A stretch of 64,000 bases of DNA from an uncultured Chloroflexia bacterium. Its GTDB lineage: Bacteria; Chloroflexota; Anaerolineae; CG2-30-64-16. Under the pieces are notes generated by a model. It ran no database searches and was not told where the DNA came from. It saw only the letters and a list, made by a program, of their open reading frames with translations. Numbering within the stretch: position 1 is the stretch's first letter; each line of letters opens with the position of its first letter. Below, in pieces: positions 6,969 to 18,235 of this stretch. The stretch is from the NCBI GenBank assembly GCA_963810095.1, contig CAWEMM010000002.1, positions 224,001 through 288,000 on the forward strand, written 5' to 3'. A program made the position numbers and the translations under genes.

Positions 6969-8192
6969 TTAGCGCGCCTGTCTGCGCGTCGTCACGTCGA
7001 AGATCACGGCGAGCGCAAGCACGAGGCCGCGCACGATGTACTGCCACGAGATGTCGACGCCCATCAGGTTCATGCCGCTGGTCAGTGACATGTAAACCAG
7101 CGCGCCGATGAGCGAACCGATAATCGTCCCGATGCCGCCGGCCGGCGAAGCGCCGCCGATAAACGCGGCCGCGATGGCGTCAAGCTCGAACAGGTTGCCT
7201 GCTTGCGGTGTCGCCGAGCGCAGCCGGGACGCGAAGAGCATGCCGGCCAGCGCCGTCAGGAAGCCCATCGACATGAAGACGAAGAAGGTAATGCGCTTAA
7301 CGTTGACGCCGCTAAGCGCCGCGGCCTCGGGGTTGCCGCCCAAGGCGTAGATGTGCCGGCCGAGGACCGTCTTCGTGGTCATGAAATGGTACACGCCGAC
7401 CACGATCAGCATGATCACGACGGTCCATGAGAGGCCGTTATACCCCGCCAGGATCCAGGTAATCACGCCAAACAACAGCGACAGCAACACCAGCTTCAGA
7501 ATGAACAGGTTGGTCGACAGCACCTCGAAGCCATACGAGATCTTCGTCCGGCGGCTGCTAATCTGGCTGAAGATGAATAACACGATCGCGAGGAGCCCCA
7601 GCAACAGTGTCAAGATGTGCATGCTGGGCAGGAACGCTCTATCCTTGCCCAGAATATCCGGAATGTAGCTATTGCCCAGATCGTTGAAGAACTTGTTGTT
7701 GATGATCACCGTGCCGGTGCCCGCCAGGACGAGCAGGAGCACGCCGCGGTAGGCGAGCCAGCCGGCCAGGGTCGCGACGAAGGCAGGGATGCCGACCTTC
7801 GCCACCAGGAAGCCGGTGAGTGAGCCTGCGGCAATACCCACAAGGAACGTGATCGGCAGGACCACCCACGGCGACAGGCCATACGTGGTGAGGCCAATGG
7901 CGGCAATCGCGCCGCACAGGCCGGCCAGGAAGCCAACGGACAGGTCGATGTGCCGGATGATGATGACGAGCGTCATGCCGCAGGCCAGAACGGCGATGTA
8001 GCCGGTCTGATTCAGCAGGTTGCTGATATTGCGCGGGGTCAGGAAGAGGCCCTTCGTCGTGATCTGGAAGACGATCATGATGACGGCCAGGGCGATATAC
8101 ATGCCGTAGTCGCGGGCATTCTGTCGCATCATCTTGCCGAACGTCGTGGTCGAGGCTGGCGCTGCACCAGCCGGAGTAGAGGTAGCAGACAC
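6969..8192 (-). CDS. multiple-monosaccharide ABC transporter permease (GguB/MmsB/XylH-like)
   Basis: 'HIDLSVG', 'GIPAFVATLAG', 'GRHIYALGGNPEAAALSG', 'ELDAIAAAFIGGAS'. Confidence 0.92.
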   Translation of the reverse strand: MSATSTPAGAAPASTTTFGKMMRQNARDYGMYIALAVIMIVFQITTKGLFLTPRNISNLLNQTGYIAVLACGMTLVIIIRHIDLSVGFLAGLCGAIAAIGLTTYGLSPWVVLPITFLVGIAAGSLTGFLVAKVGIPAFVATLAGWLAYRGVLLLVLAGTGTVIINNKFFNDLGNSYIPDILGKDRAFLPSMHILTLLLGLLAIVLFIFSQISSRRTKISYGFEVLSTNLFILKLVLLSLLFGVITWILAGYNGLSWTVVIMLIVVGVYHFMTTKTVLGRHIYALGGNPEAAALSGVNVKRITFFVFMSMGFLTALAGMLFASRLRSATPQAGNLFELDAIAAAFIGGASPAGGIGTIIGSLIGALVYMSLTSGMNLMGVDISWQYIVRGLVLALAVIFDVTTRRQAR

Positions 8193-8203
8193 TGTGGGCC
8201 TCC

Positions 8204-9745
8204 TTAGTAGGTCGTTGCCAGAGCCATGATGTTTTCCTGCGTTGCCTGCTCGATGGGCAGTTCCCCTGCAATACGCCCCGCGGAGACAACGTAGACGCGA
8301 TCGCTCATGCCCAGCACCTCGGGCAACTCGGACGAGATCATGATGATGCTCATGCCCTGTTGAACCAGCCCGGCCATGATGGTGTAGATTTCGAACTTAG
8401 CGCCGACGTCGATGCCGCGGGTGGGTTCGTCAAGGATCAGCACGTCGGGGCCCACGAACAACCACTTCGCCACCGAGACCTTCTGCTGGTTGCCGCCGCT
8501 GAGGTTCACCACTTTTTGCTCGATACTCGGCGTCTTGATGTTGAGCGATTTCCGGTACTCCTCGGCGATCTTGATTTCTGCGTTGTTGTTCACGACCGCA
8601 TTGCTCGCGATCTTGCGCAGGTTTGCTAACGTGATGTTCTGCTTGACGTCCTGGATGAGGATTAGCCCGGCCGCTTTCCGGTCTTCGGTCGCATAAGCGA
8701 TGCCGGAACGAATGGCCGACTCGGGCAGGTTGAACTGCACCTTCTTCCCCTTGACGTACACGTCGCCGTGGATTTTGTACCCCTTCGAGTTGCCGAACAG
8801 GCTCAGCGCCAGCTCGGTGCGCCCCGACCCCATCAGCCCGGCAAAGCCGACAATCTCCCCCTTCTTGACGTTAAAGTTGACGTCTTGCAGGATCGTGCGG
8901 CCCAGTGCCGGATCGTAGGCGCCCCAGTTCTTCACCTCCAAGACCACTTCGTCGGTCACGACACGCTCGCGCGGCGGGTAGATGTTGGTGATCTCGCGCC
9001 CCACCATGTTTTTGATTAAGGCTGTCTCGGTGACCTGGCCCTTGGTTGCGTCAAGGGTGACGATGGTCTGTCCATCGCGCAATACGGTCACCTTGTCCGC
9101 GATGGCGATGACTTCGCGCAGCTTGTGGGAGATCAGGACGGAGGTTACCCCGTGTTCTTTGAGCTCGCGGATGAGCTGGAGCAGGTTCTCGCTGTCGTCT
9201 TCGTTCAGGGCCGCGGTCGGCTCGTCCAGGATCAGCAGCTTAACATCCTTGCTCAGCGCCTTGGCGATTTCCACGAGCTGCTGTTTGCCAACGCCCAGGT
9301 TCTTGACCTGCGTCGCGGGGTTGACGTTCAGCTTCACTTTGTGCAGGGCATCTACGGACCGCTTGATCGTCTCGTTCCAGTCGATCGTGATGCCCTTCTT
9401 GATCTCGTTGCCGAGGAAGATGTTCTCGTAGACGGTCAGCTCGGGAACCAGGGCCAACTCCTGGTAGATGATGGCGATGCCGGCCCGCTCGCTATCGCGA
9501 ATGCTCGCGAATTTTTGCTCCTGGCCGCTAAAAATGATTTCGCCGGAGTAGGAACCGTGTGGATAAACGCCGCTCAGCACCTTCATGAGCGTCGACTTGC
9601 CCGCGCCGTTCTCGCCGACCAGGCAATGGATCTCCCCCTGTTCCACCTGGAAGCTCACGTTGCTCAGAGCTTTCACGCCGGGGAAGGTCTTGGTGATGTT
9701 TTTCATCTCTAGGATGGGAGCCATCTTGAGGATGGGTTCGCTCAT
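8204..9745 (-). CDS. sugar ABC transporter ATP-binding protein, tandem NBDs (GguA/MmsA/XylG-like)
   Basis: '[10 protein letters not shown]', 'ILDEPT', 'ISHKL'; second NBD 'LSGGNQQK', '[12 protein letters not shown]'. Confidence 0.95.
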
Positions 9746-9791
9746 AGCCCTCTGCCTCCACTCAACGAACGGAGCGCCCTAGTGCAGACCC

Positions 9792-9886
9792 CGCGAAGCA
9801 CCGAGAGATGGTGCTTCGCGTGGGCCTGCCGTTGCAAGGGCTGCAGGAGTAGCTTGTTCTCGCAGGGCGGTTGGGCTACTCCTGCA
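9792..9886. terminator. two stem-loops between the binding-protein and ATPase genes (mRNA stabiliser or attenuator)
   Basis: CGCGAAGCACC..GGTGCTTCGCG and TGCAGGAGTAGC..GCTACTCCTGCA inverted repeats. Confidence 0.6.
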
Positions 9887-9902
9887 TGTCAGCTATACGC
9901 TC

Positions 9903-12158
9903 TTACTGCAGCCCGGTGAAGTCGCTGGCGGGCCAGTAGCCGGAGTCGATGACGGCTTCCTTGACGTTGTCCTTGGTAACGGTGACGATGGCGGACGGCT
10001 TGGCCGGCACGTCGATCTTGCCGTTGTTGTAGGTCGTGGTCTTCTCAGGCGTCTTGCCGGTCAGGAAGGCGACGGCGGCCGCGATGGCGTCGTCGGCCAG
10101 CGTGCGGGTGTCCTTGAGGACGGTCATCGACTGCTTGCCGTCGATGATGTACTGGATGGAGGCCTTTTCGGCGTCCTGGCCGGTGATCCAATACTTGGAG
10201 ACGTCCTTATCGGCGGCGAAGGCATCGGCGATCGAGCGGGCGGTGCCGTCGTTGGGGGCCAGGATGAAGACCTCGCCCTTGTCGGCCGCGGTGGTGGCGG
10301 TGAGGTTCGACTCGGCCAGGTTCTTGGCGACGTCGAACTTCCAGTCGGTGGTGGTCTGGCCGATGATCTTGGCCATCTCGTCGCGGGTCAGCTTGGCCTT
10401 GTCCTTGAGGGCGATGGCTTCCTGCGAGTTCTTGACGACGAAGGTGCCATCGGCGATCTTGGGCTGCAGCTTGTTCCAGGCGCCCTCGAAGAAGAGGAAG
10501 GCGTTGTTGTCAGACGCGGCGCCGGTGTAGAGGTACAGCGGGAGGCCGGTGCGGCCGGCGGCCTGCTTGATCAGGAAATCGCCCCAGGCTTCGCCGACGG
10601 CGACCGAGTCGAAGGTGACGTAGTAATCGACGGCGTCGGTCTCGCGGATCAGGCGGTCATAGGAGATGACCTTGATACCCGCATCGCGGGCTTCCTGAGC
10701 CGCCGCGGCAGCGGCCGTGGCATCCTGCGGGGTGATGACGATGACCTTGACGCCCTGGCTAATCAGCGCCTCGACGTTGGCCTTTTCCTTGGCCGAGTCG
10801 CCCTGGCTAAACAGGATCTGCGCATTGTAGCCGGCCTTCTTGAAGGCATCCTCAAAGCGGGCCTGGTCCTGCAACCAGCGGGGTTCGTCCTTGGTCGGCA
10901 GGATGATGCCAACCGAGCCACCGGCTGCAGCGGCCGGGGCGGTCGTCGCCGCAGGCGCCGTGCCGAGCGTATCGAGCCCGGTGAAGTCGCTGGCGGGCCA
11001 GTAGCCGGAGTCGATGACGGCTTCCTTGACGTTGTCCTTGGTGACGGTGACGATGGCGGACGGCTTGGCCGGCACGTCGATCTTGCCGTTGTTGTAGGTC
11101 GTGGTCTTCTCAGGCGTCTTGCCGGTCAGGTAAGCGACGGCAGCCGCGATGGCGTCGTCGGCCAGCGTGCGGGTGTCCTTGAGGACGGTCATCGACTGCT
11201 TGCCGTCGATGATGTACTGGATGGAGGCCTTTTCGGCGTCCTGGCCGGTGATCCAATACTTGGAGACGTCCTTATCGGCGGCGAAGGCATCGGCGATCGA
11301 GCGGGCGGTGCCGTCGTTGGGGGCCAGGATGAAGACCTCGCCCTTGTCAGCCGCGGTGGTGGCGGTGAGGTTCGACTCGGCCAGGTTCTTGGCGACGTCG
11401 AACTTCCAGTCGGTGGTGGTCTGGCCGATGATCTTGGCCATCTCGTCGCGGGTCAGCTTGGCCTTGTCCTTGAGGGCGATGGCTTCCTGCGAGTTCTTGA
11501 CGACGAAGGTGCCATCGGCGATCTTGGGCTGCAGCTTGTTCCAGGCGCCCTCGAAGAAGAGGAAGGCGTTGTTGTCAGACGCTGCGCCGGTGTAGAGGTA
11601 CAGCGGGAGGCCGGTGCGGCCGGCGGCCTGCTTGATCAGGAAGTCGCCCCAGGCTTCGCCGACGGCGACCGAGTCGAAGGTGACGTAGTAATCGACGGCG
11701 TCAGTCTCGCGGATCAGGCGGTCATAGGAGATGACCTTGATACCCGCATCGCGGGCTTCCTGAGCCGCCGCGGCAGCGGCCGTGGCATCCTGCGGGGTGA
11801 TGACGATGACCTTGACGCCCTGGCTAATCAGCGCCTCGACGTTGGCCTTTTCCTTGGCCGAGTCGCCCTGGCTGAACAGGATCTGCGCATTGTAGCCGGC
11901 CTTCTTGAAGGCATCCTCGAAGCGGGCCTGGTCCTGCAACCAGCGGGGTTCGTCCTTGGTCGGCAGGATGATGCCAACCGAGCCGGCAGCCGCGGCTACC
12001 GGGGCGGTCGTCGCCGCGGGCGCCGTCGTGGCTTGGGCTACCGGGGCGGTCGTCGCCGCGGGCGCGGCCGTGGGCTGGGCTGCCGGGGCGCCGCAGCCGA
12101 AGAGTACGCTGGCAACGGTTACCAGCAGCAGGGCGGTGAAGATCCAACGCTTGTTCAT
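9903..12158 (-). CDS. sugar ABC substrate-binding lipoprotein (ChvE-like) with two near-identical binding domains
   Basis: lipobox 'LFGC'; 'ILPTKDEPRW', 'ISYDRLI', 'TGQDAE', 'QSMTVLKD' each occur twice. Confidence 0.93.
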   Translation of the reverse strand: MNKRWIFTALLLVTVASVLFGCGAPAAQPTAAPAATTAPVAQATTAPAATTAPVAAAAGSVGIILPTKDEPRWLQDQARFEDAFKKAGYNAQILFSQGDSAKEKANVEALISQGVKVIVITPQDATAAAAAAQEARDAGIKVISYDRLIRETDAVDYYVTFDSVAVGEAWGDFLIKQAAGRTGLPLYLYTGAASDNNAFLFFEGAWNKLQPKIADGTFVVKNSQEAIALKDKAKLTRDEMAKIIGQTTTDWKFDVAKNLAESNLTATTAADKGEVFILAPNDGTARSIADAFAADKDVSKYWITGQDAEKASIQYIIDGKQSMTVLKDTRTLADDAIAAAVAYLTGKTPEKTTTYNNGKIDVPAKPSAIVTVTKDNVKEAVIDSGYWPASDFTGLDTLGTAPAATTAPAAAAGGSVGIILPTKDEPRWLQDQARFEDAFKKAGYNAQILFSQGDSAKEKANVEALISQGVKVIVITPQDATAAAAAAQEARDAGIKVISYDRLIRETDAVDYYVTFDSVAVGEAWGDFLIKQAAGRTGLPLYLYTGAASDNNAFLFFEGAWNKLQPKIADGTFVVKNSQEAIALKDKAKLTRDEMAKIIGQTTTDWKFDVAKNLAESNLTATTAADKGEVFILAPNDGTARSIADAFAADKDVSKYWITGQDAEKASIQYIIDGKQSMTVLKDTRTLADDAIAAAVAFLTGKTPEKTTTYNNGKIDVPAKPSAIVTVTKDNVKEAVIDSGYWPASDFTGLQ
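9910..11984. repeat. intragenic direct repeat, ~1010 bp x2 (9910-10919 and 10975-11984; period 1065 bp)
   Basis: direct comparison by eye shows about ten substitutions, only one changing the protein (AVAY/AVAF). Confidence 0.95.
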
Positions 12159-12296: not shown

Positions 12297-12384
12297 AATA
12301 TAGCACAGATGTCGAGCCACTGGTACGACCAACCGCAGCCCCCGCTATCGGATTCCCCATACTGGCGTTAGGGGGAAACCCTTA
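12297..12384 (-). promoter_or_regulatory. promoter of the sugar importer operon: extended -10 plus two 16-bp palindromic boxes
   Basis: minus-strand TGcTATATT (-10 at 12302-12297); boxes TATCGGATTCCCCATA (12346-12361) and TAGGGGGAAACCCTTA (12369-12384); same geometry as 16137-16224. Confidence 0.65.
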
Positions 12385-12391
12385 AGGCTAT

Positions 12392-13993
12392 CTAGAGTTC
12401 TTCTTTGGGTTCGCTGCGGCGATAGGGCACGTCGACCTGAATGAGGGCTCCGCCTTCCGGTCGATTCTGCAACCTCCATTGTCCGCCCAACAGGGCCACG
12501 CGCTCTGTAATTCCCAACACACCGTAGTGCCCCTGCTCTGATAGCTGCGCAAGGTCGAAGTCCTTGGGCAGGCCGCGACCATCGTCGGCGATGGACAGCA
12601 TGATCCGCCTTGGCGACCGGGACTCCAAGCGGACCTCGACCGACTTGGCGCCCGAGTGTTTCCGCACGTTGTTCAGCCCTTCCTGGACGATTCTGAAGAT
12701 GGAGAGCTCCGTCGACTCCGCCAACCTCCCCAGCGCCGGATCGAGGGTGAGCGTGACGCGTACGCCCGTGCGCTTGCTCCACTCGTATGTGTAGGACTGG
12801 AGCGCCGAACCGAGACCCAGGCTGTCGATGGTCGGCGGGCGGAGCGTGCCGCAGATCTGCCGCAAGTCGGTGATGGCGCCGTGCACGCTGCTGCGGATGG
12901 TCTGCAGCTCCGCTGCCACCGGCGACCCGGCGTCCGTGTCGGCCTGGAGCTCCTCCAACTGGTAACCCACCCCCAGCAGGTCCTGAATGACCTGGTCGTG
13001 GATCTCGCGCGCCAGCCGCTTGCGCTCTTGCTCCAGTTCGGTGAGGAGGCGCCGCTGCGCATCCTGGAGTGCCAGGTTGGCCCGATCGAGCGCATTGATC
13101 TGGTCCGCCAGCTGGTCGAAGAGCTGCTGTTCGATCCCGTTGCGCGACTGCAGCTCGCGCTCGAGCAGCGATTGGCGCTGGTAGAGCTTCTCGGCTCGCT
13201 CTCGGGCCCGGTAGTAGCTGTCGAGCGCCCAGATGATCGGGGTGAGCTGCTGTTGGTTCGTCGCGCCGACCATCGCCCCCAGGATCTCCTCGCGCGTGAC
13301 GGCGTCCGTCTGGTATTCGGCGGTGCAATTGCCGTGTCGCAGGACGAGGATGCGGTCCGTGACGCCCATGAGGTGGTCGACGTTGTCGCTGGCGAAGAGG
13401 ACGGCCGCGCCTTGCCGCTGCCACTCCTGCACCAGCGCAAGCAGTCGCTGCTGGTACGGGTAGCTGAGGACAACACCGGGATCGTCGATGACGATCAACC
13501 GGCGAGGATGGGTCATCGCCCGGGCGATCGCAATCAGTTGACGCTGTTCGATCGAGAGGTCGGACACGCCGGAGCGCAGCGAGGGATAGCGCATGCCTAG
13601 CTCTGCCAGGATCCGAGCGGCCTCGCGGTCCATCTCGTGCAGGTTGGGCACCCGCAGCCACCGACCCGCCACACTCCAGCCGAGCTCGCCCCCCAGGAAG
13701 ACGTTGTGCGTGATATCGAGGTTCTCGGCCATCTCCGGCTGCTGGCCCACGACTTCGATGCCCAGCCGTCGGGCCTGGAAGGGCCAGCGGACCTTGCGGC
13801 CCTCGAAGTACAGTTCCCCCGCGTCGGGTGCGTGGCTGCCCGCCAGCAGCGTGGCGACCGTGGTCTTGCCCGCGCCACTCTGCCCGGCCAGGCCGACGAC
13901 CTCGCCGGGGAGGATATCGAAGCTGAGATTCTGGATTCGCGAGAGCCGGCCCACATATTGGGACAGCTTAATCGCCCGCAGCAGTGGCTCCAC
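12392..13993 (-). CDS. fusion protein: degenerate ABC ATPase (NBD) + coiled coil + NarX-type (HisKA_3/HATPase) histidine kinase
   Basis: Walker A 'GQSGAGKTT'; altered signature 'LSIEQRQ', Walker B 'LIVIDDP' and switch 'ASDN'; then H-box 'ERKRLAREIHDQVIQ', N-box 'FRIVQEGLNNVRKHS', G1 'IADDGRG', G2 'GHYGVLGITER'; no TM segment. Confidence 0.9.
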   Translation of the reverse strand: MEPLLRAIKLSQYVGRLSRIQNLSFDILPGEVVGLAGQSGAGKTTVATLLAGSHAPDAGELYFEGRKVRWPFQARRLGIEVVGQQPEMAENLDITHNVFLGGELGWSVAGRWLRVPNLHEMDREAARILAELGMRYPSLRSGVSDLSIEQRQLIAIARAMTHPRRLIVIDDPGVVLSYPYQQRLLALVQEWQRQGAAVLFASDNVDHLMGVTDRILVLRHGNCTAEYQTDAVTREEILGAMVGATNQQQLTPIIWALDSYYRARERAEKLYQRQSLLERELQSRNGIEQQLFDQLADQINALDRANLALQDAQRRLLTELEQERKRLAREIHDQVIQDLLGVGYQLEELQADTDAGSPVAAELQTIRSSVHGAITDLRQICGTLRPPTIDSLGLGSALQSYTYEWSKRTGVRVTLTLDPALGRLAESTELSIFRIVQEGLNNVRKHSGAKSVEVRLESRSPRRIMLSIADDGRGLPKDFDLAQLSEQGHYGVLGITERVALLGGQWRLQNRPEGGALIQVDVPYRRSEPKEEL

Positions 13994-15068
13994 GGTGAGC
14001 TCCTCGCCGTTTCCGCCGCCAATAGTCCAGCAGGACGGCTACCAGGATTGCCGCGCCAATAATCGTGATCTGCCAATCCGAAGGGCCGCCGAGCAGCACC
14101 AGCCCGTTGTAGAGCATCTGGGTGATGCCCGCGCCGAGCAAGACGCCCAGGGCCGCGCCCACCCCGCCGAACAAGCTTGCGCCGCCAATCACCGAAGCGG
14201 CCACGACGTCGATCTCGTAGCCGATCGCAGCAGTTGGCTGCGCGACGCCCAGCCTGGCAGCGAAGACCAACCCGCCGAGCGCGGCCAGCAGCCCACACAA
14301 CGTGTACACCAGCACCTTCAGCCGCTTGACGTTGACGCCCGTAACCGTCAGCGCACGTTCGCCGCTGCTTACTGCGTAGATGTCGCCGCCCAGAACCGTG
14401 CGTGTGAGCAAGAGCTTGACCAGCAGGGCCACGAGCAGCGCGAGCACGAACGGCGCCGGCAGGATCCACGGGCCGAGCGCGAGGTCGGTCTGGCCGAGCC
14501 GGACAAACTGGGGGGGCAGGTTCGTCACCGGCCAGCCGCGGGTGAGGTTGTACGCAAAGCCCCGGGCGATGCTCATGGTCGCCAGCGTGACGACGAAGGC
14601 CGGCAGCCGGATGTGCGCGGTCAGCATCCCGTTCACCCAGCCAATGACCAGTCCGACGCTCAGGCCGATCGCAACGGCGAGCGGCACGGCTGCGCCCAAC
14701 TGCATCGAGCGCGATGCCATGAGTCCCGCCAAGGCCATGGTTGCACCGACCGACAGGTCGATGCCGCCGATGATGATGACCAGGCTTTCGCCCAACGCGA
14801 CGATGGCCAGCCAGGAGATATTGCGCAGCAGGCCGGCGATGTTCTGAGGCGTGAGAAACGTCTCGCTTTTGAGGCTCAGGAAGGTGAAGACCACGAAAAA
14901 GACAAGGCCGATCAGAAAGACCTCGCGGGCGAACACCAGCCGCCAGGCGCGGCGAAGCAACTCCCCCAGGCGGGCAGTCTCCAGGGTCCTCCGTTCGGCC
15001 GATGTCTTCGGAGCGATCGCCAATGACTCTCCCTGAAAGATTTCGGGTGGTGCTGCCGGTTCGGCCAC
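13968..15068 (-). CDS. sugar ABC transporter permease (RbsC-like), partner of the NBD-kinase
   Basis: 'GGIDLSVG', 'LPAFVVTLATM', 'GYEIDVVAASVIGGASLFGG'; overlaps the start of the NBD-kinase. Confidence 0.9.
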   Translation of the reverse strand: MAEPAAPPEIFQGESLAIAPKTSAERRTLETARLGELLRRAWRLVFAREVFLIGLVFFVVFTFLSLKSETFLTPQNIAGLLRNISWLAIVALGESLVIIIGGIDLSVGATMALAGLMASRSMQLGAAVPLAVAIGLSVGLVIGWVNGMLTAHIRLPAFVVTLATMSIARGFAYNLTRGWPVTNLPPQFVRLGQTDLALGPWILPAPFVLALLVALLVKLLLTRTVLGGDIYAVSSGERALTVTGVNVKRLKVLVYTLCGLLAALGGLVFAARLGVAQPTAAIGYEIDVVAASVIGGASLFGGVGAALGVLLGAGITQMLYNGLVLLGGPSDWQITIIGAAILVAVLLDYWRRKRRGAHRGATAAGD

Positions 15069-15089
15069 TGCGCCGGGCGTGGCCGGGCC

Positions 15090-16130
15090 TTACGCGAGCA
15101 CGTCGTCGATCATCAAGCGCAGGCTCGCAGCGTCCAGGTCTTTCTTGTCGAGCAGGGCAGATGCGCCCGCCGCGATGCCGAGGCGGCGAAACTCGCGGTC
15201 GGGGTAGGCCGTGATCAGGACGATGCGCGAGTGGGGCCACGAGGCCTTGATGCGCCGGGCGCATTGGATCCCGTCTTCTTCGCCCAAAATCACGTCGACC
15301 AGCACAAGCTTGGGCATGACCTCCTCGGTCAGGCGAATGGCTTCGCTCGTGTTGCCCGCTTCGTAGATGACCGCCTGCGGGTATGCCCGGCCCAACATGC
15401 GCCGCAGCTGGTTCCGATAACGCGGGTTATCGTCTACGAGCAGCGTCGCCAAGCCGCTGCGCGGGAGCAAATCCGCGACACTTAACCCCGCGGAAGGTTG
15501 GTTGAGCACCTCGGGGTGTTCCGTCACGTAACGCACGGCTTCGAGGCGGCTCTGCACATTCAGGTGCCGGTAGATGCGCGTGAGATGGTTCTCGATGGTC
15601 TTGACGCTCAGGCCCGTCTCGCGGGCGAGGCTCTGGTTATCATGACCCTGGCTCAGCAGGGCCAGGATTTCCCGCTGGCGTTCGGTGAGGGTCGACGAAG
15701 ACGAGGTGAACTCGGCATAGCTGAGCAGTTTGCCGATGAGATGGCTGCTGATCCAGCGCTCGCCGTCGAGCACCCGCTGCACCGCGAGGCGCAGGTCGCT
15801 CAGCGGCTGGTCCTTAAGGTGGTACCCGTCGACTCCCACGCCGAGCAGGCCCTGCACGTACGCGTCGTCGTCATATGCGCTGACGACGAGGATCTTGAGG
15901 GCCGGGTAGCGCCGGCGTATCTCGCGCATGGCCCCGATTGGTTCAAAGTGGGGCATGGTCACGTCGATGACCAGCAGGTCAGGTTGCAGGCGTTCGAGCG
16001 CCGGGGTCAGGGTTGGGCCGTCGCCCACTTCACCCACGACCTCCAGGTTGTCCAGTCCCTCCAGCGCATTCCGGATGCCCGACCGGACGACTGCGTGGTC
16101 ATCTGCTAACAGTACCCGCACGTTTTCCAT
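15090..16130 (-). CDS. response regulator, REC - LuxR HTH - REC architecture
   Basis: 'LLADDH...LVIDVTMP' REC; 'LTERQREIL...LSVKTIENHLTRIYRHL' HTH; second REC 'LLVDDN...VLVDVIL...LLDK'. Confidence 0.92.
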   Translation of the reverse strand: MENVRVLLADDHAVVRSGIRNALEGLDNLEVVGEVGDGPTLTPALERLQPDLLVIDVTMPHFEPIGAMREIRRRYPALKILVVSAYDDDAYVQGLLGVGVDGYHLKDQPLSDLRLAVQRVLDGERWISSHLIGKLLSYAEFTSSSSTLTERQREILALLSQGHDNQSLARETGLSVKTIENHLTRIYRHLNVQSRLEAVRYVTEHPEVLNQPSAGLSVADLLPRSGLATLLVDDNPRYRNQLRRMLGRAYPQAVIYEAGNTSEAIRLTEEVMPKLVLVDVILGEEDGIQCARRIKASWPHSRIVLITAYPDREFRRLGIAAGASALLDKKDLDAASLRLMIDDVLA

Positions 16131-16136
16131 AATGAT

Positions 16137-16224
16137 ATTCTAGCATCGGCATCGCCGTCTGCCAATGGGGCTTCGCTCTTCGCAGTGCGGCATTACCCAC
16201 GTGACCTTTGAGGGATTTCCCCCA
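16137..16224 (-). promoter_or_regulatory. promoter of the regulator-permease-kinase operon (probably leaderless) with two 16-bp boxes
   Basis: minus-strand TGcTAGAAT (-10 at 16142-16137) 7 nt from ATG 16130; boxes TGCGGCATTACCCACG (16186-16201) and TGAGGGATTTCCCCCA (16209-16224). Confidence 0.65.
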
Positions 16225-16238
16225 TGCTAGTGCCCGCC

Positions 16239-17252
16239 TCAGGGCGTCCAGCCGCTCGTAGTCCACTCGTGCGGAATGCGCCGGTTGTCCAGTTGGGCTT
16301 CATACTCGCGCAGGTTCTGGGCCGTCACCACATCCACCCCCGTGCTGATCACGCCATCCACGGCGCCCAATTCGTTCAGCGCCGCGTCCTTGCCCTTTCG
16401 GCGGATCAAGTCGATGATTTGCACGGATTGGTAGCCCATGTCGTACTCGCGCTGCGCGACGACCGCGTCGATGCTGCCTGTCTTGATGCCGCTAATGCTG
16501 TCGGACGTGGCGTCGAAGCACACCACTTTGATCTCGCCCGCCGCGTTCGCCTCGCCGATCGCTGTCGCCCATGCCGGCCCGTTATAGGCGTAGACGCCGA
16601 AAGCGCCGGCCAGGTCGGGGTGCGTCAGCAAGATTGAATTGGAGAGCTGCAGCGCCACCGCGGCGTCCTCGCGATCGTTGAGCGGGGGCAGCGCCTCGAT
16701 CCCACTGCCCGCCACCGCGGCCTTGAACCCATCCGTTCGCTGCAGCGCGTTGAGCGCCGTGTCTGAGCCGCGCACGATGCCGACCTTCCCGCCCTTCGGG
16801 AGCAGGCGCGCCATGGTCTCGCCTGCAATGCGGCCCGCTGCGAGGTTGTCCGTCCCGATGTAGGCGTTCGACACGCTTCCGTCGACGGGCGGGGTGTCCA
16901 GGGTAGTGACGATAATCCCGGCGCCGGTCGCCTTCCGCATCACCTGCTCCAGCGCTTCGGGGTTCGAGGGCGCGATGGCAATGCCCGTCACCCGCTGCGC
17001 GATGTACGTCTCCATTAGTTGGATCTGCGCGGCCACGTTTTCTTGCGGGGGCACGACAAGGGTCGCGTCGACGCCCAGGTCCCTGCCGGCTACCAGCACG
17101 CCCTTTTCGACGTTGGTCCAATAAGGGTTCATCGACTTGCCGATGACCACGATCTTGGGGCGCGGGGCCGCACTGGCCGGCGCGGGACCACTGCACGCCG
17201 CGGCCGCCGAGACGACCGTGAGGGTGAGAACCAGGATGAGGGCGTGCCGCAT
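16239..17252 (-). CDS. sugar-binding lipoprotein (RbsB / Peripla_BP_4 family)
   Basis: signal peptide with lipobox 'AAAC'; 'KSMNPYW', 'YIGTDN', 'NALQRTDGF', 'VVCFD', 'VAQREYDMG'. Confidence 0.9.
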
Positions 17253-17263
17253 TCCCCGGCGCC

Positions 17264-18121
17264 TTACGCGAACAGCGGGGTCATCTGCCGGCCAGCCGCC
17301 ATTCTCTGCATTTCTTCTTCGCTCGGCGCAGCTTGGAACCGGCTTGCGGCGTCCAGCACCTTCGGCAGCAAGTTCACGTCGCCTGCCGTGTTCAGAAACA
17401 CGCCGGGCTGCCCCAGCACGAACCACACGGCGCGGTCCAGGTCGGCCTGGTCCTCGAGCGTCTCGTACCAGGTCGTGCGCGTGTGGGGCTTCTCGCCCCA
17501 CGGTCCAACCGCCACCGATTTGATGATCTGCACGGCAACGTTCCGGGTCCGACAGGTGTCGAGCAGCGTCTCGAATTCCTGTTGATAGGCCGGGTTTTGG
17601 CTCAACGGGTAGTTGTAGGGCAGGAGCACGGCGTCGAAGTCGTGCCGCGCCAGGCTGCGCAGGTGCATGCGTGGGACAGCAAGCTCATGCCCCGTCACGC
17701 CAACGAAGCGCGTCAGCCCTTGCGCCTGCGCTTCCAGCACCGCCTCCAGTGCACCGTCGGCGCCCATCGCCGTTTGCCATTCACCCTCATCCACCAGGAA
17801 GTGCAGCTGCAGGAGGTCGACGTGGTCGGTCTGCAGCCGGTCGAGGGAGCGCCGGAACTCGTCCCAGGCCTTCGTCTTTGTCCGTTCGCCGGTCTTGGTC
17901 GCGAGGAAGAACTGGTCCCGGTGCCGCTTCATCCACGGGCCAATCCGGTCCTCCGCAGCGCCGTAAGAAGCCGCGGTGTCGATGTGGTTAACCCCGTACT
18001 CCAACAGCACGTCGAGCGTGCGGTCGGCCGTCTCCTGCGAGACGTCCCAAAACGCCGCCGCGCCGAACACGGCCCGCGTGCTTTCATGTCCCGTCCGACC
18101 AAACATCGCCTTCTCGATCAT
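17264..18121 (-). CDS. aldo/keto reductase
   Basis: 'FGRTG', '[12 protein letters not shown]', 'FLATKT', '[16 protein letters not shown]'. Confidence 0.92.
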
Positions 18122-18235
18122 CTGCCATCCTCTCTCCAAACGCAGTCTCTACGACCGCCGAGAAACCAGGTCACAAAGTTCCAGAAAGCTGTGCTGCAGT
18201 GTCTGGTCCTTCGTGGCTCACTCTGTGGAAGGCCC

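Follow-up and report, generated by a model that had tools for sequence, protein, structure and literature searches.

Several bacterial transporters, among them those of the Bce, Pst-PhoU-PhoR and DctA-DcuS systems, aid a histidine kinase in sensing, and the route by which the state of the transporter reaches the kinase is debated, the partners being separate and their contacts transient. What would such a kinase read if the ATPase of a transporter were built into it? This question is raised by a locus at 12392-17252 of the DNA analysed here, a stretch of 64,000 nucleotides (nt) from an uncultured Chloroflexia bacterium (assembly GCA_963810095.1, contig CAWEMM010000002.1, positions 224,001 to 288,000), the whole of which we call the window. 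In this locus a single ORF joins the nucleotide-binding domain (NBD) of an ATP-binding cassette (ABC) transporter to a complete histidine kinase. In the direction of transcription, the genes for an RbsB-like lipoprotein, a response regulator with two receiver (REC) domains around a GerE domain (a LuxR-type helix-turn-helix), a permease and the fusion follow one another, and then come those of a ChvE-like/GguA-like/GguB-like importer (6969-12158). We find that the fusion is a conserved Chloroflexota family. On balance, we think it probable that it belongs to a transporter-coupled sugar sensor, in which a poorly hydrolysing NBD docked on a permease would relay the occupancy of the binding protein to the kinase, leading to induction of the importer.

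A conserved fusion of an ABC ATPase to a histidine kinase

We identified three Pfam domains in the fusion, namely ABC_tran (PF00005) at residues 21-172 (84 bits; the cutoff is 25), HisKA_3 (PF07730) at residues 323-387 (55 bits) and HATPase_c (PF02518) at residues 429-525 (37.7 bits); no other Pfam domain was found, and no SLC5 or STAC match. The NBD carries a Walker A motif GQSGAGKTT, a signature LSIEQ, a Walker B motif LIVIDDP and an H-loop ASDN, while the kinase part has all of the H, N, G1 and G2 boxes, with His332 and Asn442. Translation and Pfam therefore bear out the domains, motifs and boxes that had been read from the letters alone in an earlier annotation (hereafter the original prediction). 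In NCBIfam, the first 250 residues match the N-terminal half of the RbsA, YtfR, AraG, XylG and GguA profiles, which describe the tandem ATPases of CUT2 sugar transporters, with scores of 98-119 bits against cutoffs of 689-850. The fusion has one NBD (covering, for example, positions 17-246 of 501 in the RbsA profile), not two in tandem, and the N-terminal half is the best-matching stretch in nearly all the tandem ATPases listed as relatives of this NBD. The last 220 residues match kinases of the NarX, UhpB, LiaS and MctS types, far below the equivalog cutoffs. This part has what defines a HisKA_3 kinase, a phosphorylatable His in the dimerization and histidine phosphotransfer (DHp) domain and the boxes of HATPase_c, and it lacks the membrane-anchored sensor region of NarX, UhpB or LiaS. 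No hydrophobic segment was detected in the fusion, whose highest 19-residue Kyte-Doolittle mean is 0.92, against 2.56 in the permease.

An AlphaFold2 (AF2) model, built as a monomer on a 56-row alignment, comprises a confident NBD (residues 1-242), a pair of long helices (247-281, then 289-352 with His332), the second DHp helix and a confident catalytic and ATP-binding (CA) domain (412-523). The confidence measure pLDDT falls below 50 over the linker (residues 246-306), as expected when a dimeric helix bundle is modelled as a monomer. From the helical prediction and the conservation, we infer that the linker is a coiled coil. The junction that follows the NBD (L250, T251, P252, W255, A256, L257, D258, S259, Y260, Y261) is among the best-conserved segments of the protein, and P252, W255 and Y260 are invariant in the alignment.

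This architecture is widespread in the phylum. Among the best 120 matches from 5.8 billion clustered proteins (60-100% identity), 118 have all three domains at about 530 residues and the other two are shorter. Their database names are automatic only ('ATP-binding cassette domain-containing protein', 'histidine kinase'), and they come from metagenome-assembled genomes (MAGs) of Anaerolineae or Chloroflexi. Clustering at 50% identity leaves only about five full-length clusters (P0129, P0131, P0132, P0133 and the distant P0175). When one genome per species was scanned, 29 full-length fusion loci came up, every one titled as a Chloroflexota lineage (Caldilineaceae, Ardenticatenaceae, Anaerolineaceae, Pelolinea, Ca. 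Brachythrix and Thermoflexales), including the cultured Ornatilinea apprima P3M-1 (L019). A full-length match was also obtained in 26 of 401 sampled Chloroflexota genomes, some of them from other classes; ten loci from other classes, added to the 29, make up the 39 species-level genomes to which the counts below refer. The genome of the window itself has one copy. A search for longer forms, among proteins of 934-2665 residues with the NBD region, brought up nothing but generic ABC fusions, none of them related to this family. In two MAG contigs (L029, 3425-5006; L027, 7995-9704) the fusion is split into two frames, by a frameshift or a sequencing error.

The recurrence of one ORF of about 530 residues in 118 of the 120 relatives and in 39 genomes excludes an artefact, that is, a frameshift or assembly error in the window joining an ATPase gene to a kinase gene, and we give this explanation practically no weight. 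The linker and junction are among the best-conserved segments. In addition, four public runs from a single study supply contigs that span the linker (13038-13328 and 13049-13258) and the overlap of permease and fusion genes (13877-14046) with no differences and no indel listed; these are low-depth DNA runs that leave some bins uncovered and may include the source sample, which makes them minor and not independent evidence. No public RNA run was listed over 12300-15100, which has no bearing on expression. The fusion is thus real, and homologues with the ABC_tran, HisKA_3 and HATPase_c architecture exist, as the original prediction supposed.

An altered nucleotide site

We examined the catalytic motifs against the N-terminal half of tandem CUT2 ATPases, which is the proper baseline for this NBD and already has a non-canonical signature. 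In GguA of the window, for instance, the N-terminal half reads LGVGKQQ where the C-terminal half reads LSGGNQQ; the N-terminal half is otherwise canonical in Walker A, DEP and SH, and the C-terminal half has a degenerate Walker A and Ser for the switch His. The fusion of the window lacks the canonical ABC catalysis set, with Asp171 at the position of the catalytic Glu, Asp203 at that of the switch His, and LSIEQ. Other motif residues are largely kept in the family: the Walker A Lys is present in 120/120 close relatives and 37/39 genomes, the Walker B Asp in 39/39 genomes, and the Q-loop Gln in 118/120 and 35/39. The switch His, by contrast, is found in none of the 39 genomes (D 19, N 13, Q 3, K 2, S 2) and is replaced in all 120 close relatives (D 68, N 46, other 6), and the fourth signature residue is Glu (LSxEQ) in 118/120 relatives and 39/39 genomes. 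The catalytic position after Walker B is more variable, being D in 104, E in 10, N in 5 and G in 1 of the close relatives, and E in 18, D in 17 and another residue in 4 of the genomes. The kinase is intact throughout, with its His in 120/120 and 39/39 and the N-box Asn in 119/120 and 39/39.

In these alignments, loss of the switch His and the LSxEQ signature are the traits that define the family. Since the substituted residues are themselves conserved, the pattern points to a selected, altered nucleotide site and not to decay. Of the changes singled out in the original prediction, those of the signature and the H-loop are therefore family-wide, although the degeneracy of LSIEQ has to be read against a baseline that is already non-canonical; loss of the His holds in all 39 genomes, to Asp in 19 of them, whereas replacement of the catalytic Glu by Asp is not a family trait. 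Two lineages, cluster P0131 and L016 (fusion at 7935-9566), have no Walker A at all (DQEGQAILE, DHESQAIFE) and read D-H at Walker B; their kinase is intact and they still adjoin the regulator and the importer. ATP-driven closure of the NBDs consequently cannot be the universal switch.

Gene neighbourhoods of the fusion

Neighbourhoods of the 39 loci were annotated by BLAST with the seven proteins of the window. A REC-LuxR-REC regulator neighbours the fusion in 30 of them, and an orthologous ChvE/GguAB-type importer is present in 21, its binding protein 65-78% and its GguA 66-82% identical. Ten loci (type A: L001, L002, L005, L007, L009, L015, L024, L091, L092, L097) are arranged as in the window, with a dedicated RbsC-like permease and mostly their own binding protein; in all ten the fusion follows the permease or binding-protein gene at ≤40 nt, with no ATPase gene between. 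Seven others (type B: L003, L004, L006, L011, L021, L098, L099) encode a binding protein, a single NBD of 254-288 residues, a permease and then the fusion, and in the two cases that were aligned (L003 and L006) the single NBD is fully canonical (LSGGQRQ, LDEPT, SHN). Seventeen loci (type C) have no permease of their own, and the fusion lies beside the ChvE/GguAB importer. The last five (L012, L025, L031, L093, L096) have neither arrangement; L025 and L031 are truncated where their contigs end, and in L093 and L096 no partner permease was found within 8 kb on either side. The gene directly before the fusion is that of a permease in L003, L004, L098 and L099 and that of GguB in L022 and L023.

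Overall, a CUT2 permease or importer gene set accompanies the fusion in 34 of the 39 loci, and this is the general rule. The order binding protein, regulator, permease and fusion, whose conservation the original prediction had made a test, recurs in ten loci besides the window and not in the seven with a single NBD, the 17 with the importer only or the five with neither. Its picture of a whole importer turned receptor accordingly fits the subset with its own permease and is not the general arrangement. In a quick tree of 29 fusions the neighbourhood types are mixed in both main clades, with permease-bearing members basal in each; the outgroup is the distant P0175 (branch 5.73), 7 of 27 inner branches are starred, and the root is unsafe, so that no firm order of events follows.

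A stand-alone single NBD in place of the usual tandem ATPase of CUT2 systems is itself seen in L003 (1563-2333) and L006 (5608-6474), and also in L004, L011, L098 and L099.

The regulator and a recurring palindrome

The regulator matches Response_reg over two stretches (127.5 bits) and GerE (57.7 bits). It classes with the NarL/FixJ-type regulators and has an extra C-terminal receiver beyond the usual form of that family. Both receivers carry a full set of acceptor residues (D10, D11, D56, S84 and K106 in the first; D233, D234, D279, T307 and K329 in the second), and the acidic pair, the acceptor Asp, the Ser/Thr and the Lys of both are conserved in 29-30 of 30 aligned orthologues.

Upstream of the genes for the importers' binding proteins we recognised a shared palindrome, TAGGGG-N3-5-CCCCTA, an inverted repeat of the kind that a dimeric LuxR-type regulator would be expected to bind. 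The window has one match, where 0.02 are expected. Across 30 related loci (400,846 nt) there are 22 matches at ≤1 mismatch, in 17 loci, whereas 50 local shuffles of the same loci gave 3.64 on average and at most 9. Nearly all of them are intergenic, lying before the importer binding-protein gene, in the divergent gap between regulator and importer, ahead of the regulator operon or immediately behind the fusion, and the palindrome is found at equivalent places in 8 of the 10 further loci from other classes. Its conservation before importer genes supports the earlier suggestion that the system induces the neighbouring importer. A degenerate copy lies about 80 nt upstream of the regulator start codon, unseen by a scan at ≤2 mismatches.

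The palindrome was rejected as the marker of a regulon in the genome to which the window belongs: the 6.13-Mb sequence has one site only and the reversed control pattern has three, so that no regulon can be defined.

Some other CUT2 operons, too, have the palindrome before or beside them. In L009 it occurs at 9616-9631, with a single NBD and a permease after the fusion (9739-11627), and in L002 at 640-655, beside a second RbsABC-like operon. Because of these sites, the regulator may control more than one transporter in some genomes.

Related NBDs joined to other outputs

The degenerate NBD, together with the same junction motif, is also fused to a GAF-HisKA-HATPase_c kinase (P0154; LDDV, VTEN) and to a MalT-type TPR region with a LuxR helix-turn-helix (P0158; LSAEQRQ, LLDN, SSDD). 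Since one NBD and junction are joined to several outputs, they behave like a sensory input module. P0158 must be rare, because no full-length match to it was found in 301 genomes of the class, where its NBD part matched only ordinary NBD-kinase fusions. PAS-PAS-HisKA_3 kinases with partly degenerate NBDs (P0152, P0204) also occur, and in P0175, the distant NBD-HisKA_3 kinase, the ATPase motifs are fully canonical.

The protein Atlas contains, mostly from Bacillota, clusters of about 600 residues with ABC_tran, HisKA_2 and HATPase_c (feature scores 0.86). As a lead only, these may be an independent, analogous NBD-kinase family.

A proposed transporter-coupled sensor and its alternatives

How might such a protein sense? 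We propose that the soluble kinase, which has no sensor domain of its own, would reach the membrane through its NBD, seated on the cytoplasmic face of a CUT2 permease in place of the transport ATPase. The partner would be the RbsC-like permease in the window and the GguB-type permease of the importer in genomes without a dedicated one. The kinase dimer, formed by the DHp domain and the linker helices, would pair two identical NBDs, each presumably able to bind ATP since Walker A is kept. Both nucleotide sites would hydrolyse poorly, as expected from the loss of the switch His and from the Glu in the signature. When the binding protein, loaded with sugar, docks on the permease, the spacing or closure of the NBDs would change, and the junction (TP-x-x-W-A-L-D-S-Y-Y) and linker helices would carry this change to the DHp domain, altering the autophosphorylation of His332. 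Phosphate would then pass to the REC-LuxR-REC regulator, which, acting on TAGGGG-N3-5-CCCCTA, would control the ChvE/GguAB-type importer and probably its own operon.

We modelled the complex of the NBD (residues 1-262) with the permease (residues 46-366), each with its own 56-row alignment. The docking score was 0.47 (runs of 0.46, 0.47 and 0.47), against 0.00 for the best of 3 controls, which amounts to weak support; at least 90% of the contacts agree between runs and the pLDDT of the partner is at least 78. In the calibration, 58 of 80 solved complexes and 2 of 110 mismatched pairs attained the mark; at scores ≤0.60 only 7 of the 80 solved complexes did so, along with both of the mismatches that passed. 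The model is unlikely to reflect memory of a close solved complex, because no solved structure is homologous to the permease at E<1e-5. Passing the mark may mean little beyond a resemblance of this NBD to one that fits such a permease.

Several observations weigh against the proposed sensor. A dedicated permease is present in only ten of the 39 loci, plus the window; 17 loci rely on an importer whose own tandem ATPase would be a competitor of the NBD for GguB, and five have no partner permease nearby. The docking result is weak, and the same would be expected of any ABC NBD set against a permease of its cognate type. ATP binding is dispensable in some lineages, as P0131 and L016 lack Walker A, and the 18 genomes that keep the catalytic Glu suggest that some members may hydrolyse ATP. 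As for the palindrome, its count in the genome proves nothing by itself, and its weight comes from position and from recurrence across genomes.

In an unlikely alternative, the fusion would itself be a slow but genuine ATPase, serving the RbsB/RbsC-like system, and its kinase part would sense transport activity, as has been proposed for Bce-type systems. Loci of the window type indeed have no other ATPase gene in the sensor operon; the Walker A Lys and Q-loop Gln are kept in most genomes and the catalytic Glu in nearly half, and an Asp in place of that Glu might still support hydrolysis at a low rate. However, the switch His is absent and the signature Glu present in all 39 genomes, two lineages have no Walker A, and seven loci have a separate single NBD, with LSGGQ, DEP and SH in the two aligned, and 17 a tandem ATPase, where the fusion would not be needed for transport. 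In a somewhat less probable alternative, the protein would sense in the cytoplasm without ever docking on a permease, its NBD responding to ATP or the energy state, or binding GguA or the single NBD so as to read an idle importer, much as MalK restrains MalT. This would suit the 22 of 39 loci that have no dedicated permease, two of them orphans, the weakly supported docking model and the fusion of the NBD to a MalT-type TPR-LuxR output in P0158. It would leave the dedicated binding-protein and permease paralogues without a role, and the fusion overlaps or closely follows permease or binding-protein genes in ten loci and the window. Moreover, the Q-loop of ABC NBDs contacts the permease, and its Gln is conserved here (118/120 and 35/39).

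The transporter-coupled sensor, the reading that we prefer, can be extended to a broader one, which we put forward tentatively and rate just short of probable. The degenerate single NBD would be a new signalling input module that, docked on a CUT2 permease, makes a transmembrane receptor of a binding-protein-dependent importer. Closure in a non-hydrolysing, ATP-bound state, or the spacing of the NBDs, would replace the piston of a transmembrane (TM) helix and the HAMP relay, and the module would have been shuffled onto at least three outputs. In genomes without a dedicated permease, one permease dimer would alternate between transporter (with GguA) and receptor (with the fusion).

Layout of the locus and the neighbouring importer

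All genes of the locus and of the importer lie on the minus strand (Table 1). The GTG start of the fusion and the stop of the permease gene overlap by 26 nt. The permease, with about ten hydrophobic segments, begins 15 codons later (351 residues) in its database record. From an ATG at 17252, the lipoprotein gene translates as MRHALILV..., with a lipobox Cys; this ATG is the likely start codon, and a longer ORF reaching 17501 is probably not translated. The lipoprotein, the permease and the NBD of the fusion together make up the gene set of a binding-protein-dependent CUT2 importer.

Table 1. Genes, domains and putative sites at the locus and its neighbouring importer (positions in the window)
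Feature	Position	Strand or location	Basis or remark
NBD-kinase fusion (P0001), 533 aa	12392-13993	-	translation, Pfam, AF2 model, motif conservation
Fusion: NBD, aa 1-242	13268-13993	-	
Fusion: conserved junction TPIIWALDSYY and linker helices, aa 247-322	13028-13255	-	
Fusion: DHp with His332, aa 323-387	12833-13027	-	
Fusion: CA domain, aa 412-525	12419-12760	-	
Dedicated CUT2-type permease (P0002), BPD_transp_2, RbsC/AraH/GguB-like	13968-15068	-	Pfam/NCBIfam
Response regulator REC-GerE (LuxR helix-turn-helix)-REC, 346 aa	15090-16130	-	Pfam/NCBIfam
RbsB-like sugar-binding lipoprotein (P0004), Peripla_BP_4	16239-17252	-	Pfam, signal-peptide hydrophobic segment
Palindrome TAGGGGGAAACCCTTA, putative operator of the LuxR-type regulator	12369-12384	between fusion stop (12392) and importer binding-protein start (12158)	
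Degenerate palindrome copy, core GGGGGAAATCCC, possible autoregulatory site	16209-16226		read by eye, three mismatches
Importer binding protein, 751 aa, two ChvE-like Peripla_BP_4 modules and lipoprotein signal	9903-12158	-	
GguA-like tandem-NBD ATPase, 513 aa	8204-9745	-	
GguB-like importer permease, 407 aa, BPD_transp_2	6969-8192	-	

The importer had been called a conventional ChvE-GguAB system. Its genes are indeed ChvE-, GguA- and GguB-like, but its binding protein is unusual in being double: the two ChvE-like halves of the 751-residue protein are 99% identical, and their DNA copies, 1065 nt apart, are 99-100% identical. Tandem binding proteins are also found in L019 (10960-13191), L023 (2900-5101), L016 (1614-3821) and L006 (3300-5576), with halves 94-97% identical within each of these four genomes; identity drops to 34-78% between orthologues from different genomes. 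This comparison suggests concerted evolution or repeated duplication of the modules. A single-module protein is present in L008, L014, L020 and L028.

At the other end of the locus, an aldo/keto reductase gene (17264-18139, minus strand) ends 11 nt before the start codon of the lipoprotein gene and may be co-transcribed with the sensor genes.

Relation to known systems

A full-text search of mostly open-access literature returned no description of an ABC NBD-histidine kinase fusion, in agreement with the original prediction, which knew of no characterised example. If the proposal is true, the covalent link and the rebuilt ATPase site offer a direct handle on the reading of NBD closure or permease conformation as a signal. 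An ABC NBD would join the short list of two-component input domains, and the regulation of sugar uptake in abundant environmental Chloroflexota of sediment, soil and activated sludge would be explained. The system is approachable by experiment, thanks to the cultured Ornatilinea apprima P3M-1 and to compact four-gene sets.

In systems of the BceAB-BceS type, an ABC transporter perceives the stimulus for a kinase that has no extracellular sensor, and the output induces a transporter, much as proposed here. Bce systems have a separate membrane kinase with two TM helices, an FtsX-type exporter, an active ATPase and no binding protein, whereas the fusion is a soluble kinase covalently joined to an NBD without switch His, in a binding-protein-dependent system of the CUT2 sugar type (for the ABC transporter as co-sensor of a kinase, see PMC9169098 and PMC3023708). 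The permease of the window is of the BPD_transp_2 family and not of the FtsX type with its large extracellular domain, and the kinase, unlike an intramembrane-sensing one, is without a TM segment. A transporter module and a kinase share one polypeptide in CbrA and CrbS, where an SLC5 solute symporter domain is joined to the kinase through a STAC domain (PMC7096432, PMC5715377). They fuse the membrane domain of a secondary transporter, whereas here the motor domain of an ABC transporter is fused and the membrane and periplasmic parts are separate.

The three-component sugar sensors ChvE-VirA, XylFII-LytS and AraP-AraS-AraT, where a membrane kinase receives its signal from a binding protein, come close in another respect. 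As would be the case here, a periplasmic or lipoprotein sugar-binding protein is the primary receptor and the two-component system induces a sugar ABC importer. The binding protein touches the periplasmic or membrane domain of the kinase in those sensors, whereas the fusion has no such domain, and the permease and NBD would act as the transmembrane relay. CuaD with CuaSR is a related system (PMC5663094). In the MalK-MalT pair, the NBD of the idle maltose transporter restrains MalT, so that an ABC NBD reports the state of the transporter to a LuxR-family regulator; the fusion of an NBD to a MalT-type TPR-LuxR output in P0158 is a covalent counterpart. MalK, however, is a fully active ATPase making a non-covalent contact, whereas the NBD of the window is degenerate and fused to a kinase. 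As to the chemistry of the site, the heterodimeric ABC proteins TAP1/2, CFTR and TM287/288 and the regulatory ABC protein SUR have nucleotide sites in which the catalytic Glu, the switch His and signature residues are replaced, and which bind ATP, hardly hydrolyse it and regulate; these proteins keep one consensus site, whereas a homodimer of the fusion would have two degenerate sites and, as its output, a kinase instead of a pore or channel. The system thus shares its logic with Bce, CbrA/CrbS, the binding-protein-kinase sensors and MalK-MalT, and its site chemistry with heterodimeric ABC proteins, and it departs from each of them in their defining features. We class it with transporter-coupled two-component sensing, and there is a fair chance that it represents a distinct principle of transmembrane signalling.

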